Of a stretch of DNA of 64,000 nucleotides, positions 3,318 to 50,039 are shown in pieces (within the stretch, counting starts at the first letter, position 1; each line of letters begins with the position of its first letter). The stretch lies in the sequence record PV660463; one strand, written 5' to 3'. The translations under genes were made by a program, and so were the position numbers. The notes below the pieces were generated by a model, which saw nothing but the letters and a program-made list of their open reading frames with translations, was not told where the DNA came from and ran no database searches. Source of the stretch: Escherichia phage LF82-41.

Positions 3318-3626
3318 TTACATAAGAAGCAAACGTTCTACCGGAGTACCATCAACCGAAATTACTTTATCAAGGCGGAAAGAACGCCACTGACCTAACT
3401 TGGTATCAAATGCTCGAACTGATTCACGAGGTTCAGAACGAACTTCTGTTGCCGGATTGTTATTTTCATATTTGACTTCAAGTTCATCGCGGGAGGCAAA
3501 CATAGTGCGTACCTCGCCGTTAGCCTTTTCAAATACAACACAATGAACGCCTACAGACAGAATAGTTTTAATACGTTCACGAAGAACCATAGTTTCTTGT
3601 TCAGTTAAAATCATATTATTCACCAC
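3318..3626 (-). CDS. hypothetical protein (102 aa, 31.x-like)
   Basis: ORF track; between 31 and cd. Confidence 0.5.
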   Translation of the reverse strand: MVNNMILTEQETMVLRERIKTILSVGVHCVVFEKANGEVRTMFASRDELEVKYENNNPATEVRSEPRESVRAFDTKLGQWRSFRLDKVISVDGTPVERLLLM

Positions 3627-4197
3627 AAAAGTTTCGGATTTGTTCCCAATTCAGAGAACGAAGATTATTACGAGAGTACTGAATTACTTCAATACCAGCT
3701 TGTTTAAGAATGTCTGCCCAGTTTTCAGGAGATCGGTCATATAATTCTGCATATACAACCTTTTTAATACCTGACTGCGTAATAGCTTTAGTACAATCAG
3801 GACATGGAGAAAGCGTCGTATATAACGTAGCACCTTCAATAGAATTACCTTTACGAGCGGCAAACAAAATTGCATTCAATTCTGCATGGATTTCATTATT
3901 AGCAGACCATGCACTATGAGCAGCTCGATGTTCTTTGGCTAAAACAAAATTATCTACCCGTCCAAATGCTGTAGTGCCTTCTTTATGTCCAGCAACGATG
4001 ACTGGGATTGGTTTATTCTTCAACCAACCATTTTCAGATGCATGTTCGCAACAGTTAACGCCACCTGCAGGTGAACCGTTATATCCAGTAGAAATAATGC
4101 GTCCATCTTTTTCAATGACGGCACCAACTTTCCATGAACAACATTTTGATTCTTGAGAAATCAGATATGCAATCTGAAGGTATGTGCTAGCTTTCAT
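3616..4197 (-). CDS. cd: dCMP deaminase
   Basis: 193 aa; zinc-deaminase motifs HAELNAI and SPCPDCTKAI; synteny. Confidence 0.93.
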   Translation of the reverse strand: MKASTYLQIAYLISQESKCCSWKVGAVIEKDGRIISTGYNGSPAGGVNCCEHASENGWLKNKPIPVIVAGHKEGTTAFGRVDNFVLAKEHRAAHSAWSANNEIHAELNAILFAARKGNSIEGATLYTTLSPCPDCTKAITQSGIKKVVYAELYDRSPENWADILKQAGIEVIQYSRNNLRSLNWEQIRNFCGE

Positions 4198-42456: not shown

Positions 42457-44273
42457 TAGGACATCCATTCTTTACGAAGTTCTGAATCATCACCCATCAG
42501 CATTTCAAAGAGTTCTTTCCAATTTTCAGGAAGTTTAACTACGTCGTACACAGGGTTCTGAATCATTTCACGATACTCTGACTTTTCAAGGGAGCCTAAT
42601 CCCTTGATGTATCGAATACTATGCTTAGGCAGTGTATCTTTAACTTCTTCATACTCAGCTACAGTATAAAACCATTTTTGAGTTTTGCCAATTTGTGCAA
42701 TAATTACAGGTGTTTTAACAAAGCGAATACGTCCTTGTTCAAACAATTCAGGCCAATTACTAAAGAAAGCAAGCAAAGCAGGATAAATACTTCCAAGGCC
42801 GTCATGATCGGCATCGGTCATAATTGCAATATTACGATAGTTCGTATTCTCTGCCTTTTCACCAAGAATAAGACCTGTGATAGCACAGATATCAAAGAGC
42901 TCTTTGTTCTTCATCATATCAGCATATGACATACCCCAGCTATTCATCACCTTACCACGTAATGGGAATCCGCCGTGTAGTTCACGGTCACGAACATCAA
43001 TGAGATAACCAATTGCCGAATCACCTTCTGTTAAGAACAATGTCGTATCTGCATCTTTACCACATTGGTTAGCTTTAATATGTTTATGAACCTTAGCTTT
43101 AGTTGCCTTTTTAGCTGCTTTAGTTTCTGCTGCCTTTTCTGCTGCCAATTTACGAGCTAATGCTGCTTCAACAATAGGCATAATCAAGGCTTCATTTTTA
43201 AGAAGTGCCTGAGCAATTTTCTTAGCATCTAATTGGATATGATTACGAATATCACCATACGTTGACGTTAAACGTTCTTTAGTCTGAGAATCAAAACGCA
43301 TGTTGCTCATGTCTCTAATAAACATCAACATTGTGAGACATTCTTTAACACGAGCTTTAGTGACTTCAATACCCTTATATTTCTTTTTAATACCCGGCAA
43401 AAGATGTTCGCAGATATCGTCCATTACACATTCAACATGATGACCACCATTTTTAGTATGGATGTTATTCACATAAGTTAAATGACGGAAGCCATCTGGT
43501 GATGTTGTGAATGCTATAGAGACTTTATCATTTTCTTGAATGATATTATCTTCACCAAATTGTTTAGCAAATCGTTTAAAATTACCATCAACCTTTTTAC
43601 CATTAAATGTGAACTTGATATCAGGATAAACGACTGCCAATGTTTGAAGTCGGTCTAAAGTAATATCTAAATAAATTTGAGATAAATTATGCTCTTCAAA
43701 TGAAGTGAAATCAGGAGTGAATATTACTTTAGTGCCTTTACCTTTAGATTTCTTAGAAGACCATGATTTGTTTTCCATTCCGTTTGAACAGTTAACAGTG
43801 ATTTCATTTTCGCCATCTGACGTGATGCCTGTAAACAACGTAGAGAAGATATTAGTTAAACTACTCCCGACGCCGTTCATACCACCAGTCTTGCGTTCAG
43901 AGTCATCGCCAAAGTTACCACCGGCCTTTGGAATAGTCCAGGCTGCTACAGGCCCAGGAATTTGTTCACCTGTTTGGTCTGTAACTAAACCTTGAGGAAT
44001 ACCACGTCCGTTATCTTCCACTGAAACTTGATTATTTTTAATTTGCACATCAATTTTATTTGCAAACTTAAATGATGTACGAATAGCTTCATCAACCGAG
44101 TTGTCAATAATCTCATCGATTAATTTAACCAGACCAGGAACATATTCAACTTGTTGATATTTACCAAACAAAAAACGCTCATGGGCTTCTTTGGCCGAAG
44201 AACCAATATACATGCCACTACGTTTCTTAATATGTTCTACATCTGACAGTACCTTAATTTCATTTTTAATCAT
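42456..44273 (-). CDS. 39: DNA topoisomerase II large subunit (GyrB-like), single uninterrupted ORF
   Basis: 605 aa; GHKL ATPase VSVEDNGRGIP and Toprim LFLTEGDSAIGY; corresponds to T4 genes 39+60 fused. Confidence 0.93.
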   Translation of the reverse strand: MIKNEIKVLSDVEHIKKRSGMYIGSSAKEAHERFLFGKYQQVEYVPGLVKLIDEIIDNSVDEAIRTSFKFANKIDVQIKNNQVSVEDNGRGIPQGLVTDQTGEQIPGPVAAWTIPKAGGNFGDDSERKTGGMNGVGSSLTNIFSTLFTGITSDGENEITVNCSNGMENKSWSSKKSKGKGTKVIFTPDFTSFEEHNLSQIYLDITLDRLQTLAVVYPDIKFTFNGKKVDGNFKRFAKQFGEDNIIQENDKVSIAFTTSPDGFRHLTYVNNIHTKNGGHHVECVMDDICEHLLPGIKKKYKGIEVTKARVKECLTMLMFIRDMSNMRFDSQTKERLTSTYGDIRNHIQLDAKKIAQALLKNEALIMPIVEAALARKLAAEKAAETKAAKKATKAKVHKHIKANQCGKDADTTLFLTEGDSAIGYLIDVRDRELHGGFPLRGKVMNSWGMSYADMMKNKELFDICAITGLILGEKAENTNYRNIAIMTDADHDGLGSIYPALLAFFSNWPELFEQGRIRFVKTPVIIAQIGKTQKWFYTVAEYEEVKDTLPKHSIRYIKGLGSLEKSEYREMIQNPVYDVVKLPENWKELFEMLMGDDSELRKEWMS

Positions 44274-44324
44274 GTTGTCTCCTCGTTATGAAGGTATTCT
44301 ATCATCCGAAATCTAAAGCAAAAA

Positions 44325-44336
44325 GGGCCGAAGCCC
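44325..44336 (-). terminator. hairpin after goF-like gene
   Basis: rc GGGC-UUCG-GCCC followed by UUUUUGCUUU. Confidence 0.5.
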
Positions 44337-44762
44337 TTATTTAAATTTAATTTTCTGAAGTGCATCAATTGCAGCCAGTCGCCCTTGTTCACTTTTAACT
44401 GTAATGACCACATCGCCTGATACGATCACCGAACCATCAACAAATTCTATAGAGCCTTTTTTGAAATCAACAGATGTATCTGGTTCCGGAACTTCTTCAA
44501 AGAATTTAAATTCTGCACCATAAAGCAGAATATCACCTTGCATACTATGAATAGTTCGGCCATAATCGCCTACGGCTTCTACAGCAATCACTGAAACGCC
44601 GTAACCAATCATCTCTTCTACAATAAAATCTTTGGACAATAAAGTAGTATGCAGATTAGTATTAAGACGTTTACCAGTCGTATTAAGAATTCTCAAGAAA
44701 TTATCTTCCTGTCCTTTGATAATACGATATTTCTTACCAACTTCAAAACCTTTAAAAGCCAT
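44337..44762 (-). CDS. hypothetical protein (141 aa); goF-like by size and position
   Basis: Same length as T4 goF, immediately downstream of gene 39; identity not verifiable. Confidence 0.45.
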   Translation of the reverse strand: MAFKGFEVGKKYRIIKGQEDNFLRILNTTGKRLNTNLHTTLLSKDFIVEEMIGYGVSVIAVEAVGDYGRTIHSMQGDILLYGAEFKFFEEVPEPDTSVDFKKGSIEFVDGSVIVSGDVVITVKSEQGRLAAIDALQKIKFK

Positions 44763-44764
44763 AA

Positions 44765-44944
44765 TTAACCCTTCTTAAGTAAGTCGTAAAAACCACCGTT
44801 CACATGTTTAGGAGCAGAAACCCGACGAGTAGACAGACGATGACATTCAGGGCAAACATCGTTTTCTCGTTCAGAAATCCTTTTAATTTTTTCATATTCA
44901 TGTCCACAATCTTCAGATTGACATTTATAGTCGTATAACGGCAT
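44765..44944 (-). CDS. small zinc-ribbon protein (59 aa, FmdB-like CxxC...CxxC)
   Basis: My own translation MPLYDYKCQSEDCGHEYEKIKRISERENDVCPECHRL...; below track cutoff; tightly packed between neighbours. Confidence 0.5.
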   Translation of the reverse strand: MPLYDYKCQSEDCGHEYEKIKRISERENDVCPECHRLSTRRVSAPKHVNGGFYDLLKKG

Positions 44945-44946
44945 TA

Positions 44947-45357
44947 TTATTCCTTAAAATGTGCTTTCAACATTTGATACAAAGACCATGCCTGGTCGTT
45001 ATTTTCGATAGTAATCGTCATCACAGGAAATTCAGACAATTCGTCAAGTTCGTCAGAATCTTGCTCTTCAGACTCTTGATATGGATTTCCAACTTCATCA
45101 AAAAACTCTGCTTCACTAGTAGAGAGCCAGATAAAGTTTTCATCAAGAATATCACCACCTGTCGCGTATCCAACCATGCCAGTAGATGTCACAATTTTAG
45201 TAGGACGTCCAAGATGGTCAACATCTAATACTTTAAATGGTTCCATGCCAAGACGTCGTGCATAAATCCCATTATCAGTATGGTCTTTAATAAACTCTTC
45301 TTGGGCACGTTTATCTTTAAATTGGTACCATGAGTTAACGCGGAATTTATTAGCCAT
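44947..45357 (-). CDS. hypothetical acidic protein (about 136 aa)
   Basis: Track ORF trimmed to MANKF start with RBS GGAAGGAAA. Confidence 0.45.
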
Positions 45358-45629
45358 TAGTAAGTTTCCTTCCAATAAGTTGTACCGTTTTCAGTGATTT
45401 CACGGAAGATACCATAGATAGGCATTTCATCACCGAGTTTTTCGTAAACGTAAACCACTTCGGTGTAGCATAAAAATTCGGTCCAGCTTTTCTGTACAAC
45501 AACTAAATCAGGATTAAACAGAACATCTTCAAACTCATCGATGTTTGAATCAGTAGTTACGTTTTTAATGATTTGACGTTTCATAATATTCTCCTCTTGT
45601 TTTGATAGGTCTATAGTATCATAGACCAT
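45357..45629 (-). CDS. hypothetical protein (90 aa)
   Basis: ORF track. Confidence 0.4.
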
Positions 45630-45641
45630 AGTTGTTGTACA

Positions 45642-46166
45642 TCATTTTAGCAAAATAAAATCAACTTGTTCTGCCAATGAACGTCTAAACATTAATTGAC
45701 AACTTCCGAGGATGAAATCAGGTGCTTCATAGACCGCGATGTAGTATCCTTTAGCTTTCAAGAGTTCAACATCCACTTGGTCATCAAACCATGCATAAAC
45801 CGCGTCAACACTTTCAAATCCAAAATAGAACCCTTGAGCCCAATCTTCGTTCAATTCAAATGTGTGCTCAATTCTATAGTATCTTAAGATATTTTGTTCA
45901 AGGAGTTTGTCTTCATTTACTGTAGGACGATTAGGGACATTATAGTTGTCGCCGTGATGGTAGAAGTTACCTGAGAGTATTCCATGCTTATCAAGGAACT
46001 CCCATGTTTCTTCAGAGTTGTCGGTGCCCGACCAACCGTATGGCGAACGAGGTTCTTTATTCCAAGAGGTTTCCCAAATTCTGACGGCTTTACCATCTTC
46101 GATAGCAACTCCTGGTAAAGATTCACGTTGAGTGCAAAAACTACGTTCTACGCGGTAAACTAACAT
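45642..46166 (-). CDS. hypothetical protein (174 aa)
   Basis: ORF track; promoter at 46191-46221. Confidence 0.45.
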   Translation of the reverse strand: MLVYRVERSFCTQRESLPGVAIEDGKAVRIWETSWNKEPRSPYGWSGTDNSEETWEFLDKHGILSGNFYHHGDNYNVPNRPTVNEDKLLEQNILRYYRIEHTFELNEDWAQGFYFGFESVDAVYAWFDDQVDVELLKAKGYYIAVYEAPDFILGSCQLMFRRSLAEQVDFILLK

Positions 46167-46190
46167 ATTATTCTCCTCTGGTTGATATGG

Positions 46191-46221
46191 TTATAATATC
46201 AAAAACAGAGGAGAAGTAAAC
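46191..46221 (-). promoter_or_regulatory. early-type promoter
   Basis: rc: GTTTAC-N17-TATTAT. Confidence 0.5.
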
Positions 46222-46225
46222 AACT

Positions 46226-46645
46226 TTATGCAAAAGATGCTGGACAATATTTTTTGATTTGGAACTCAGGAACTACCATGAACTGTCCAGCGAAAACGAT
46301 GTTATAAAGCTTAACACCATCTTCTACCCAACGGTCGCTAATAAATCCGGCTATTTGCTTAGTTTTCCATGGCGTTCCATCAGTTGCAGCATCAATAGTA
46401 AATTCATGGTCTTTTACAACTAAAACAGACCTGCATAGTTTCCATTTGAACGCTTTTTCTTCTGGTTCAATGAATTGGCTTTTAACGTAACCAATGTTGC
46501 CATCAGCATCACGAACTTTAACTTCATTGCGACCAAAAACAGGATCACTTACATAAAGAACTTCAACCAACTTACCAGCAACTTTAGAGCGAGAAGCATC
46601 CGATACGTGTACGTAATCACCAATAGAGAGATTTACAATATTCAT
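46226..46645 (-). CDS. paralog family member A (139 aa)
   Basis: Shares C-terminal motif GFISDRWVEDGVKLYNIVFAGQF with two adjacent ORFs. Confidence 0.5.
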   Translation of the reverse strand: MNIVNLSIGDYVHVSDASRSKVAGKLVEVLYVSDPVFGRNEVKVRDADGNIGYVKSQFIEPEEKAFKWKLCRSVLVVKDHEFTIDAATDGTPWKTKQIAGFISDRWVEDGVKLYNIVFAGQFMVVPEFQIKKYCPASFA

Positions 46646-46654
46646 AATAATTCC

Positions 46655-47110
46655 TTAAGCTTTACGAGGAGACACATAGCGAGTGATTTCAGATTCTTTA
46701 ACAACTCGGAAGTCACCTAAGAATACGATATTGTATAACTTTTCACCATCTTCAACCCATTGGTCACTAATGAAGCCACACATAATATCAGTTTTGTTTG
46801 GATAACCGTATTCATCGATGAAGTCAAATTCTTTATCAGTCTGGAATTCAACACCTTTGCAAAGGGCCCATTTGAACTGTACATTGGGTTCAGTAGAAGC
46901 AAAATGAGCGCTCACATGAGTTTCCAAGAATTTAGGACTTACGTAAGCGTACTGAGTTTCAGTTTTTCCAGAACTAGGAATGATTCGAACTTTAACTTCT
47001 TTAACACGACCAGTACCATTAGTACGAAGTCCTACCACTTCAACTAGACGACCTGCAGCTTTAGAACGAGATGCAGACGATACACGCTTAATTTCACCAA
47101 TAGTAATCAT
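46655..47110 (-). CDS. paralog family member B (about 151 aa)
   Basis: Motif GFISDQWVEDGEKLYNIVFLGDF; start moved to ATG at 47110 (downstream of promoter that lies inside the track ORF). Confidence 0.5.
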   Translation of the reverse strand: MITIGEIKRVSSASRSKAAGRLVEVVGLRTNGTGRVKEVKVRIIPSSGKTETQYAYVSPKFLETHVSAHFASTEPNVQFKWALCKGVEFQTDKEFDFIDEYGYPNKTDIMCGFISDQWVEDGEKLYNIVFLGDFRVVKESEITRYVSPRKA

Positions 47111-47172
47111 AATTTCTCTCTCTTTGTTTAAGTTGAATTCATTATACTCCATCCGTCCTTGGATGTACAACA

Positions 47173-47667
47173 TTAATTAAGGATATTAACCACAGCACTA
47201 CGTGGAACTACACTAAAATCACCTGCATGAACAACGTTCAGAAGTTCAACACCGTCTTCAATCCACTGATCAGTTACCCATCCATTTACTGGACCAGCGA
47301 ATGGTCGTCGAATTGAAACATATTTACACAACAAATCAGTAGGCTCAATAGGCTTAATCAGAGTACCATACATACAAGCGATATCCATATCAATACAGAT
47401 GTCTTTAACAGGTTCTACTTCTTCAATCAACAGTTCAAAGTCGGTGCTTGGAAGGGCGGTAGTAGAAATTGTACCATATGAATTTTTAATTTCTAAGAAT
47501 AACCAAGGGCCTTCAACTTGTTTGATGAAGTTAACAATAGTGAAACTATTACCTTGAGTGGCACCTAAAATTTCACAAAACTTTTCATAAGCTCGCACTG
47601 AAGCACCGTACCAGTTGATTTGTTTTTCATCTTTCAGGATGTAAGTAGCCGTGGTATTGATATTCAT
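47173..47667 (-). CDS. paralog family member C (164 aa)
   Basis: Motif GWVTDQWIEDGVELLNVVHAGDF; promoter at 47696-47725. Confidence 0.5.
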   Translation of the reverse strand: MNINTTATYILKDEKQINWYGASVRAYEKFCEILGATQGNSFTIVNFIKQVEGPWLFLEIKNSYGTISTTALPSTDFELLIEEVEPVKDICIDMDIACMYGTLIKPIEPTDLLCKYVSIRRPFAGPVNGWVTDQWIEDGVELLNVVHAGDFSVVPRSAVVNILN

Positions 47668-47695
47668 AATATTTTCCTCTCGTTAAGATAGGTTC

Positions 47696-47725
47696 ATTAT
47701 ACTCCAACCATCCTTGGTTGTAAAC
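47696..47725 (-). promoter_or_regulatory. early-type promoter
   Basis: rc: GTTTAC-N18-TATAAT. Confidence 0.55.
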
Positions 47726-47730
47726 TGGTT

Positions 47731-48408
47731 TTATCGCTGTTTTACACTTAACGGGTCAGGATTCTCAGGGACATCTTCAAGGCCAAGCGCATAACGCTGA
47801 GCATATTTTAACATCAAAATATCTTTAGCACAATCGTGAATACTATCATGGGCAACGAATCCTTTTAGCGTACCCATCGGTAATGGACACATACTTAATC
47901 CTCGTGTCAACGAGTAAGCTTCGATTGCCGTACGAATATCACGTTGAGCCCAGAATTTAACAGGTTCTAATTTATCGGTATCAATATCTGGTTCAAGAAC
48001 ACCTTCATCACGATAGAGGTCACGAATCAAATCGACCAAGATAGGGAAGTCAAAGCTCATACCACGGCACCACATCTGTGATTTCCATTGGTCAACTTTA
48101 TTAGCTCGACAATAATCTAAAAAGATTTTAATGCCTTCAAGCGTAGTGACATCGTCTTCAGACGGGGCCAGGTTTTTACGTGCTTCTGCTGATTGTTCTT
48201 TCCACCATTTCATAGTGGATTTAGCGAAAACTCGCTTCCCTTTTTGAGAAGCTAAATTAAATTTAATTCGCTTACCTCGTTGAACAAGTTCTTCAAATGT
48301 TTCAACAACATCAGGGTCCGAATTATATGCAATAACCGCAAGGTCAATAACAGCAGCTTTTGACGTATTGCCGAATGTTTCAAAATCTATAATAACATCA
48401 GTGCTCAT
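47731..48408 (-). CDS. dexA: exonuclease A (DnaQ-like 3'-5' exonuclease)
   Basis: 225 aa; Exo I-like motif IIDFETFG; adjacent to dda as in T4. Confidence 0.85.
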   Translation of the reverse strand: MSTDVIIDFETFGNTSKAAVIDLAVIAYNSDPDVVETFEELVQRGKRIKFNLASQKGKRVFAKSTMKWWKEQSAEARKNLAPSEDDVTTLEGIKIFLDYCRANKVDQWKSQMWCRGMSFDFPILVDLIRDLYRDEGVLEPDIDTDKLEPVKFWAQRDIRTAIEAYSLTRGLSMCPLPMGTLKGFVAHDSIHDCAKDILMLKYAQRYALGLEDVPENPDPLSVKQR

Positions 48409-48417
48409 AATTTTCTC

Positions 48418-49731
48418 TCAAATAAAATGGACGTCAAAACGACCACGAGTTGTGCCGACATACAATAACTGTTTAGCTAGTTCTGAATCGGCATAATGGA
48501 TACACGGTGTATAAACAAAGGCCGTGTCAACAGACATACCCTGGGCCTTATGGAAGGTTGATACTGGTAGTGCCTTCACCTTAGTGAACATGCGTTTAGC
48601 ATCCCAGAATTCGCTCCATGGAGCTTTACCACCTTTATTCCAGAATTTGTATGTTTCTGCAGTCTTAGCCAAAAACAAATTGAATTTATAAAGCTCTTCT
48701 TCAGAAGAAATAACCTTTATATCTTCGCGGACGTATTCTTCATCATCGCCATATGTTTCTACTGTAAGATTCCAGTATCGTATCATATATTCGCCTGAAA
48801 CACCACGTGCTTTAACAAATGTAGACGTTTCTACGGCATCTCGAATACGAACGAATTGCCCGTTATTGAAAAGCATTTCAGACATATTTTTGCCATCTAG
48901 CTTATACGTCTTGGTAAACGGCTCTTGTAGAACAATGACCTCGTCTTTAATAAATGGCTTTTCTGTTTCGAGAAGTTTTCGGCGAATAATTGAATTTAAC
49001 TTGTCCACCGACTTATTTGTGAATGCCATCATTCGATTTTCGAAAAGGTCTTCAGGAGTTTTAACGACATTAAAATAGTTCATCATATATGATTTAAGGT
49101 CTGTATATCCATGAACACCGTGCCCATCAACTACTTTATCATAAATCCATTTGCCATTACGAATATCAGTCGCAACATCAATAATTGGTGCATTGCTACG
49201 TTTAACTTCTGTAAGGTTGCATTGCACGAAGTCTTTGTGAGTGAAGAAAGGACTTAGATACGCAGTTGATTCGCCTGGGTCTACCGGTCGAATCTGGCAT
49301 CGGTCACCAATTCCAATTACTGTACACCATTTAGGGATACTAGCTAACATTATTTTAAACAGAGAACGGTCACACATTGACGCTTCATCAAATAACAGTA
49401 CACGACACAAGGCTAAGTCGGGAACCTTTTTCTGTTCAAACAATACGTTTTCTTCGTATGTGGTTGGGTTGATTTTAAGAATGCTATGAATGGTTGATGC
49501 TTCTTGACCCGCAAGTTTGCTTAGAACCTTTTTAGCAGCATGTGTAGGGGCTGCTAAAATAATACCTGATTCTCCAGAAGAAATAAGGGCTTCAACGATG
49601 AATCTAGTAAGGGTTGTTTTACCTGTACCGGCAGGTCCATTAATAGTTACATGATGTTTCTTTTCTTTAATAGCTTCCATAACAACGTTGAAGGCGTTTT
49701 TCTGGCCTTCAGTCAAATCATCAAATGTCAT
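48418..49731 (-). CDS. dda: DNA helicase Dda (SF1)
   Basis: 437 aa; Walker A GPAGTGKTT. Confidence 0.93.
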   Translation of the reverse strand: MTFDDLTEGQKNAFNVVMEAIKEKKHHVTINGPAGTGKTTLTRFIVEALISSGESGIILAAPTHAAKKVLSKLAGQEASTIHSILKINPTTYEENVLFEQKKVPDLALCRVLLFDEASMCDRSLFKIMLASIPKWCTVIGIGDRCQIRPVDPGESTAYLSPFFTHKDFVQCNLTEVKRSNAPIIDVATDIRNGKWIYDKVVDGHGVHGYTDLKSYMMNYFNVVKTPEDLFENRMMAFTNKSVDKLNSIIRRKLLETEKPFIKDEVIVLQEPFTKTYKLDGKNMSEMLFNNGQFVRIRDAVETSTFVKARGVSGEYMIRYWNLTVETYGDDEEYVREDIKVISSEEELYKFNLFLAKTAETYKFWNKGGKAPWSEFWDAKRMFTKVKALPVSTFHKAQGMSVDTAFVYTPCIHYADSELAKQLLYVGTTRGRFDVHFI

Positions 49732-50039
49732 CGTAAAGTCCCTGCAATTGGAATACTAACAATACGGCCTGTGTCCAGGATTCGTTGATACAATCTTTGC
49801 GTCTCCGCATCTAGTTTAACGTGTTTCATTTCAAGCTTATTAAACCAGAACTTACGCGGAGTTTCGACCATTCTTAGAACTCCCATTTTTAAATCTGTTT
49901 TATACTGTGTTTTCAAAGTATCGAAAACTTTATCTGCAATATCCTTTCTAAAAAATACTGCAGGACGATGCTCATCAAGTGGAACCGGGACAGTAAATCC
50001 TTCCATATCTCGATAAACTATTGCATATACATAAACCAT
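49728..50039 (-). CDS. hypothetical protein (103 aa, dda.1-like)
   Basis: ORF track; overlaps dda start by 4 nt. Confidence 0.5.
   Translation of the reverse strand: MVYVYAIVYRDMEGFTVPVPLDEHRPAVFFRKDIADKVFDTLKTQYKTDLKMGVLRMVETPRKFWFNKLEMKHVKLDAETQRLYQRILDTGRIVSIPIAGTLR

Follow-up and report, generated by a model that had tools for sequence, protein, structure and literature searches.

In the early region of Escherichia phage LF82-41, three small genes follow one another on the minus strand just behind the exonuclease gene dexA, and the question raised by this arrangement is what the encoded proteins are and what they do. We studied them in a window of 64,000 nucleotides (nt) of sequence record PV660463, where they occupy positions 46226-47667 and are referred to below as open reading frames (ORFs) 1 to 3 in the order of their coordinates. 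An earlier note, made from the sequence alone, had proposed a tandem triplication of a gene family and had guessed at host-takeover or anti-defence factors under diversifying selection. Our analysis makes it very probable that the three ORFs are the known motB.1 - motB - motB-like cassette of Mosigvirus and that ORF2, by orthology, acts as MotB of phage T4 does. All three are homologues of well-characterised T4 proteins and are annotated in relatives as motB.1, motB and a second motB; homology of this kind is what the earlier note had itself named as a refutation of its reading. The lengths of 139, 151 and 164 amino acids (aa) and the coordinates given for the three consecutive genes were borne out, and the genes and their domains are as follows.

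47173-47667, minus strand: ORF3 (motB.1), 164 aa, stop codon at 47173-47175
47413-47667, minus strand: ORF3 N-terminal domain, residues 1-85, putatively GoF-like/LSm-like
47344-47412, minus strand: ORF3 linker, residues 86-108, disordered
47176-47343, minus strand: ORF3 C-terminal domain, residues 109-164
46655-47110, minus strand: ORF2 (motB), 151 aa, stop codon at 46655-46657
46925-47110, minus strand: ORF2 N-terminal domain, residues 1-62, KOW-like and basic
46877-46924, minus strand: ORF2 linker, residues 63-78, disordered and prone to insertions and deletions (indels)
46658-46876, minus strand: ORF2 C-terminal domain, residues 79-151
46226-46645, minus strand: ORF1 (second motB, MotB-like), 139 aa, without a long linker
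46466-46645, minus strand: ORF1 N-terminal domain, residues 1-60
46229-46453, minus strand: ORF1 C-terminal domain, residues 65-139

The C-terminal block that had been noticed in the three genes is real at the protein level and not a frame artefact. Alignment recovered the pattern G[FW][IV][ST]D[QR]W[VI]EDGxxLxN[IV]V..G.F.VV in every ORF, and in blastp comparisons ORF1 and ORF2 matched each other over their full length (expect value, E=2e-30), while ORF3 matched either of them over 29-36 residues (E=2-3e-9). All three proteins scored above the gathering score (25 bits) of the Pfam family PF17613 ("MotB, modifier of transcription"), with 82.6 bits for ORF1, 131.9 for ORF2 and 35.1 for ORF3. Exactly three copies of the C-terminal core were found when the window was searched with tblastn and with a hidden Markov model of the core; these searches detected neither a fourth copy nor the 29-aa peptide published for phage RB69 (see below). 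NCBIfam gave no match for the three ORFs or for the neighbouring motB.2 homologue, and comparing ORF2 with the sequences in the PDB returned nothing relevant, the only hit being 4ghn at E=0.7.

The two-domain architecture of MotB, in which a KOW-like N-terminal barrel with a V-S-x-x-S-R-S-K-x-A-G motif precedes the C-terminal domain, was found in ORF1 and ORF2, which have the N-terminal motif IG..V.VS.ASRSK.AG.LVEV in common. It was not found in ORF3, which is classed under MotB.1 and not under MotB proper because its N-terminal domain is of another type. The "divergent N-terminal halves" of the earlier note are thus a feature of ORF3, but not of ORF1 and ORF2, which are homologous end to end with 45-51% identity. 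For the same reason "triplication" is a loose term: the C-terminal domain is present three times, but attached to two types of N-terminal domain.

ORF2 covered positions 2-157 of the 162 in the PF17613 profile and matched phrog_1671 (E=4e-64). It is 95% identical to RB69 MotB (P0126) and 48% identical to T4 MotB (E=2e-43). The alignment with T4 MotB extends over the full length, with the KOW-like N-terminal domain, the linker and the C-terminal domain in common, and ORF2 lies at the same place between dexA and cef, behind a similarly placed early-type promoter; it differs in being 11 residues shorter, in the linker, and T4 has one motB where LF82-41 has two. The location is also that of the MotB family as a whole, namely the early, dispensable dexA-cef region of a Tevenvirinae genome, with a common direction of transcription. 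The host-takeover guess for these early-region genes is therefore backed by homology, ORF2 being the orthologue of T4 MotB. AlphaFold2 (AF2) models were built for ORF2 and ORF3 on alignments of 30 and 24 homologues, respectively. That of ORF2 (predicted local distance difference test, pLDDT, 84) consisted of two beta-rich domains, residues 1-62 and 80-146, joined by a low-confidence linker (63-80). The net charge was +8 for the N-terminal domain (isoelectric point, pI, 10.7), -4 for the C-terminal domain and +2 for the whole protein.

Although the longest ORF at this place has 172 aa, we chose the start at MITIGE, in agreement with the "about 151 aa" of the earlier note. Longer readings (172 or 165 aa), which occur in some annotations, were rejected: the 21-codon extension runs into the promoter, and in several relatives it is in another frame or contains stops, owing to the variable length of a (GA)n run ahead of the start. 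This run (47111-47125) lies in the ORF2 leader and is also the ribosome-binding region, and its length differs in close relatives (AAAGAGAGAAATT, AAAGAGAGAGAAATT, AAAGAGAGAGAGAAATT). Several relatives also have TATAGT or TATAGC instead of TATAAT as the -10 hexamer of motB. Changes in the length of the run or in the -10 hexamer could alter motB expression.

ORF1 goes back to an old duplication of motB and has both of its barrels. The protein matched phrog_1671 (E=1e-51), is 39% identical to T4 MotB and corresponds to the RB69p010 (RB69ORF010c) / RB51ncORF010c type. Both domains of T4 MotB are present, and the differences are the loss of most of the linker and a non-basic N-terminal domain: the charge is -1 for the N-terminal and +2 for the C-terminal domain, with a pI of 6.7 for the whole protein. 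The 90%-identity cluster to which ORF1 belongs has 205 members and is named 'MotB-like'. A MotB-family match was present in 754 GenBank phage records, and an ORF1 orthologue (at least 80% identity) in 207 of these, with a clean gap down to <60%.

ORF3 matched phrog_2333 over residues 1-164 (E=1.7e-82) and T4 MotB.1 (E=2e-26), and is 98% identical to 164-aa proteins in Mosigvirus genomes. Its match to PF17613 involved the C-terminal half of the model only (residues 84-159, profile positions 78-153). In the AF2 model (pLDDT 79), beta-rich domains were predicted for residues 1-83 and 110-163, with a pLDDT <50 for the linker between them, residues 86-106. According to PMC12152347, the N-terminal domain of MotB.1 is an LSm-like barrel in common with GoF and Frd.2, two LSm-like early proteins of Tevenvirinae; comparison of an ORF3 N-terminal profile with a GoF-like profile by hhalign gave a probability of 76% (E=2.3e-5, 82 columns), consistent with remote homology. 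GoF and Frd.2 have other C-terminal domains, none of them MotB-type. ORF3 is acidic, with charges of -5 and -2 for its N- and C-terminal domains and -9 for the whole protein (pI 4.5). With the 143-aa form of T4 MotB.1 it has in common the putatively LSm-like N-terminal domain, the C-terminal domain (PTDLLCK..GWVTDQWIEDGVELLNVVHAG.[FY]SVVPRSAV) and the position directly before motB, but it is 21 residues longer and has an extra linker segment that carries a DMDIACMYGTLIKP motif (conserved D-M-D-I-A-C-M-Y-G-T-L-I-K-P) without counterpart in T4 MotB.1. The DMDIACMYGTLIKP motif is found again in many other MotB.1-type proteins, either within the linker or N-terminally; these include forms of 180 and 250 aa and forms whose N-terminal domain is KOW-type. 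It may be a short docking motif. An Rfam scan of 44000-50000 yielded only a Y_RNA match within ORF3, which at 26.6 bits (E=0.035) was below the gathering score of 38 and was taken as chance.

The source phage is an RB69-like T-even phage (Mosigvirus). Across 2.9 kb round the cassette, identity is 99.4% to Enterobacteria phage ATK47 and 96-97% to numerous further Mosigvirus phages. GenBank records of relatives label the genes MotB.1, motB and MotB-like, and the arrangement is annotated in about 200 phage genomes. On the minus strand the order in the window is dda-dexA-ORF3-ORF2-ORF1-motB.2-cef-goF, as it is in RB69, ATK47 and others, and the gene order of the cassette is identical in the annotations of ATK47, RB69, mar005P1, RB51 and CAM-21. 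Since dexA (47731-48408) is transcribed first, the three genes lie downstream of it and not upstream, as the earlier note had put it. In RB69 the same cassette is found in the same order with 92-95% protein identity (RB69p010, motB and motB.1). PMC7827196 describes two motB genes and one motB.1 in RB69, with a common C-terminal domain and different N-terminal domains, and regards either MotB or MotB.1 as probably derived from the other by duplication. The literature thus already covers the family and its common C-terminal domain, the presence of two motB genes in RB69-type phages and the connection of MotB with H-NS; the cassette of LF82-41 is real but ordinary, and adds little itself.

Three genes with a MotB-type C-terminal domain were found in Mosigvirus-type loci and in the Tequatroviruses CAM-21 and RB51. 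The number is two in most loci of the T4, JS98 and VR types, where motB follows a motB.1-like gene, and one in six more distant loci. The order in T4 is dexA-motB.2-motB.1-motB-cef.

Comparison with the intact ORF3 revealed that motB.1 is interrupted in two reference genomes. In T4 (NC_000866) the gene (2222-2651, homologous to window positions 47173-47667) is annotated as 119 aa, ending in GWVTDQWIGRWR before the stop codon, and differs from the window by one extra G (CAATGGATTgGAAGAT) within the conserved GWVTDQWIEDG core, while the +1 frame continues with EDGVELLNVVHAGEYSVVPRSAVVAILN to the homologous stop. Through this 1-nt insertion the reference protein loses 28 residues from the end of the conserved domain. 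The intact 143-aa T4-type MotB.1, with accessions from re-sequenced T4 strains, was found on 256 contigs, compared to 2 for the 119-aa form. In RB69 (NC_004928), where motB.1 lies at 3377-3873 (homologous to the same window positions), two 1-nt insertions split the gene that is intact in LF82-41 into an annotated 132-aa ORF and a separate 29-aa ORF (RB69p012), the latter being the motB.1 tail in a third frame. These insertions may be real or may stem from errors in sequencing. The 'Category 3' 29-aa peptide of PMC7827196 is explained by this displaced tail, and we reject it as a separate gene, since it is an artefact of the RB69 reference record. The 13.8-kDa MotB.1 assayed in PMC12152347 appears to correspond to the truncated form, and the two papers on MotB.1 (PMC7827196, PMC12152347) do not mention the frameshift. 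For those who work on MotB.1 the frameshifts could matter, as recent experiments appear to have used a form missing 28 residues of the conserved domain.

The earlier note had given each gene an early-type promoter of its own. Promoter-like sites were found before ORF3 and ORF2. Before ORF1, which starts 9 nt past the ORF2 stop with an AAGGA ribosome-binding site ahead, none was found at the threshold of the consensus scan and nothing convincing was seen by eye; the site before ORF2 probably serves ORF1 as well. The position of the motB element is conserved in relatives and in T4 (GTTTAC..TATAAT). The two sites overlap the copies of a direct repeat:

47696-47724, minus strand: promoter-like site before ORF3, TTTACA-17-TATAAT, sigma-70/T4-early-type, 11 of 12 consensus matches, function inferred
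47141-47169, minus strand: promoter-like site before ORF2, TGTACA-17-TATAAT, sigma-70/early-type, 10 of 12 consensus matches
47128-47167, no strand assigned: direct repeat copy 1, 40 nt, spanning promoter and leader of motB
47683-47722, no strand assigned: direct repeat copy 2, 40 nt, spanning promoter and leader of motB.1

The repeat search found the two copies to be 83% identical, with a spacing of 555 nt, so that they bracket ORF3, and recombination between them could delete or duplicate motB.1, an effect that has been proposed for promoter-early stem-loop (PeSL) shuffling elements of T4-type phages. PeSL elements are repeated intergenic motifs, each with a stem-loop and after it an early promoter (consensus TTTACW-N17-TAYWAT, PMC4122927), and flank variable genes. 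One of the repeat copies fits this consensus exactly and the other has TGTACA, and the likeness is limited to the promoter consensus: stems in both repeats lie only in the promoter spacers and are not more stable than shuffled sequences (z -1.5 and +0.1). The spacer stems differ by paired substitutions, CATCC/GGATG in one and CAACC/GGTTG in the other.

What the cassette might do can be judged mainly from T4 MotB, an early protein that is toxic to Escherichia coli when expressed alone (PMC6070864). Its binding to host DNA and to the glucosyl-hydroxymethyl-cytosine DNA of the phage is not sequence-specific. H-NS and StpA co-purify with it, it dominates H-NS footprints, and it relieves the repression of some of the H-NS regulon and doubles the burst size (PMC6070864, PMC7827196), and papers citing Son et al. 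(2021, NAR 49:9229) also describe it as nucleoid-compacting. By orthology, ORF2 would coat host and phage DNA non-specifically early in infection, remodel or override H-NS-DNA complexes, relieve H-NS silencing and modestly raise the burst size. The contact with DNA would be made by its basic KOW-like N-terminal barrel (+8), and the disordered, indel-prone linker would join this barrel to a mildly acidic beta-barrel C-terminal domain. An OB-fold has been predicted in the literature for the C-terminal domain. This domain is unlikely to be a non-specific DNA-binding surface, because a basic N-terminal domain is confined to the MotB orthologue, and it would more plausibly be an interaction or assembly module. 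ORF3 would be a GoF-type LSm-like N-terminal barrel fused to the same domain in a protein that is acidic overall. Expression would start from the two predicted early-type promoters, one serving motB.1 and the other motB together with ORF1. Conservation and the common C-terminal domain suggest that ORF1 and ORF3 belong to the same pathway as MotB. The outcome proposed for ORF2, an early relief of H-NS silencing, is also that of T7 gp5.5, T4 Arn and LUZ24 gp4, which are unrelated in sequence and in mechanism: T7 gp5.5 binds the oligomerisation region of H-NS and T4 Arn mimics DNA, whereas MotB binds DNA itself.

Several observations weigh against this assignment or limit its reach. ORF2 is, at less than half identical residues, well diverged from T4 MotB, and DNA binding and the link to H-NS are known for T4 MotB only. 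Knock-down of motB hardly alters the T4 transcriptome (PMC6070864), and in PMC12152347 a T4 motB.1 deletion is reported to be without phenotype; because of these small or absent effects, the physiological role is probably modest or conditional. ORF1 and ORF3 lack the basic character of a non-specific DNA coater, as their pI values show, and may therefore act differently. Furthermore, the region contained 10 promoter-like sites, which is not above chance (8.9 expected from shuffled sequence), and the ORF3 and ORF2 promoters are accordingly consensus matches only. As a speculative extension, which we consider rather doubtful, the common C-terminal barrel might dock on H-NS/StpA or mediate hetero-oligomers of the paralogues and so deliver three nucleic-acid-binding heads (basic KOW, neutral KOW and acidic LSm-like) to the nucleoid. 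In that case full-length MotB.1 and the two MotB proteins would make up one counter-silencing system, and the published negative results for MotB.1 would reflect a truncated protein without the C-terminal module.

Selection on the cassette was estimated from the ratio of nonsynonymous to synonymous substitution rates (dN/dS) by the Nei-Gojobori method (NG86). The cassette and its flanks were fetched from a dozen relatives, and the same nine genomes were used for every gene; GenBank phage records were chosen for this, since the 23 loci obtained from IMG/VR did not suffice for dN/dS in number and had diverged too far. The values were:

ORF1: dN/dS 0.18, dS 0.27
ORF2: dN/dS 0.24, dS 0.39
ORF3: dN/dS 0.12, dS 0.16
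dexA: dN/dS 0.03, dS 0.08
dda: dN/dS 0.03, dS 0.11
motB.2 homologue: dN/dS 0.06, dS 0.09

All three ORFs are under purifying selection at the gene level. In none of the 36 pairs for each of ORF1, ORF2 and ORF3 did dN exceed dS, and the diversifying selection envisaged in the earlier note was not found at this level. The C-terminal domain was the most constrained part of each gene (dN/dS 0.09-0.14) and the ORF2 linker, with its indels, the least (0.33). In the Tequatroviruses CAM-21 and RB51, ORF1 and ORF2 have 85-88% protein identity to the window, and ORF3 of CAM-21 has 96%, whereas identity falls to 65-70% in the neighbouring dexA, cef and goF, and dS is saturated for dexA and cef. The cassette has clearly been exchanged between phage genera.

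These results bear on the proposal that the genes are tandem, fast-diversifying anti-defence or host-takeover paralogues whose N-terminal halves have been tuned to different host targets by positive selection. The cassette is indeed markedly more variable than its surroundings: among close relatives, identity to the window was 85-95% for ORF1 and 75-99% for ORF2, compared to 97-100% for dexA, dda, cef and motB.2, and the dN of the cassette was 6-35 times that of dexA. N-terminal domains have also been swapped within the family (KOW-type, LSm-type and the longer 180- and 250-aa forms), and countering xenogeneic silencing by H-NS can count as counter-defence. The greater divergence is, however, mainly due to a dS 2-5 times higher than in the neighbours, as recombination with divergent alleles predicts, and we therefore attribute it to exchange of such alleles rather than to positive selection. 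With dN/dS at 0.12-0.24 throughout, with no match to the three ORFs or the motB.2 homologue in PADLOC, whose library holds defence systems and not anti-defence genes, and with inhibition of any defence system by MotB-family proteins not known, we regard this proposal as improbable.

We give equally little credence to an action of the family on RNA or on the transcription-translation machinery rather than on DNA and H-NS, in which barrels of the KOW-like (NusG/Spt5) and LSm-like (Hfq) kinds would bind RNA polymerase, ribosomes or mRNA. Such an action would fit the original meaning of 'modifier of transcription' and the LSm-like N-terminal domain reported for MotB.1; a GoF mutant stabilises an mRNA, according to PMC12152347, and at a distance of 1-2 kb there are goF and another goF-like gene, transcribed in the same direction. 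T4 MotB nevertheless binds DNA tightly and had almost no effect on T4 transcripts in RNA-seq (PMC6070864), and wild-type GoF and MotB.1 are reported, again in PMC12152347, to be without effect in an mRNA reporter assay. That ORF1 and/or ORF3 are decaying, functionless duplicates hitch-hiking beside motB seems very improbable indeed, even though the T4 motB.1 deletion is reported to be silent, 1-nt insertions break up motB.1 in both the T4 and the RB69 reference genome and ORF1 is absent from 547 of the 754 MotB-bearing phage records. Both genes are intact here, with the low dN/dS values given above and a C-terminal domain strongly conserved in all relatives fetched; ORF1 orthologues are full length in 207 genomes, and intact T4-type MotB.1 far outnumbers the truncated form. 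The motB.1 - motB - motB-like cassette, with ORF2 as the MotB orthologue, thus remains the reading that we prefer.

The neighbouring genes to which reference was made above are the following.

48418-49731, minus strand: dda, 437 aa
47731-48408, minus strand: dexA exonuclease, 225 aa, identified by PF16473 (E=3e-20), phrog_255 (E=2e-81) and annotations in relatives; transcribed ahead of the cassette
45642-46166, minus strand: motB.2 homologue, 174 aa, identified by phrog_1106 (E=2e-45), T4 motB.2 (E=6e-15) and the RB69 and mar005P1 annotations
45357-45629, minus strand: cef, 90 aa (longest ORF)
44947-45375, minus strand: goF, 142 aa (longest ORF), phrog_622
44765-44944, minus strand: 39.2-like zinc-ribbon gene, 59 aa
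44337-44762, minus strand: goF-like gene, 141 aa, phrog_622

Despite its name, the motB.2 homologue has no MotB domain and stands outside the paralogue family. It is located downstream of ORF1 and next to cef in LF82-41 and other Mosigviruses, and between dexA and motB.1 in T4, RB51 and CAM-21; this shift is a local gene-order rearrangement. At the other end of the region, a dda.1 homologue (103 aa, 49728-50039) overlaps the dda start by 4 nt, in a stretch left unannotated in the near-identical ATK47 RefSeq record. The 141-aa goF-like protein gave a weak match to phrog_2333, the MotB.1 family, in its N-terminal half (E=0.0012), and the family of LSm-like N-terminal domains would thus have three members inside 3.4 kb of the window, namely ORF3, goF and the goF-like gene.

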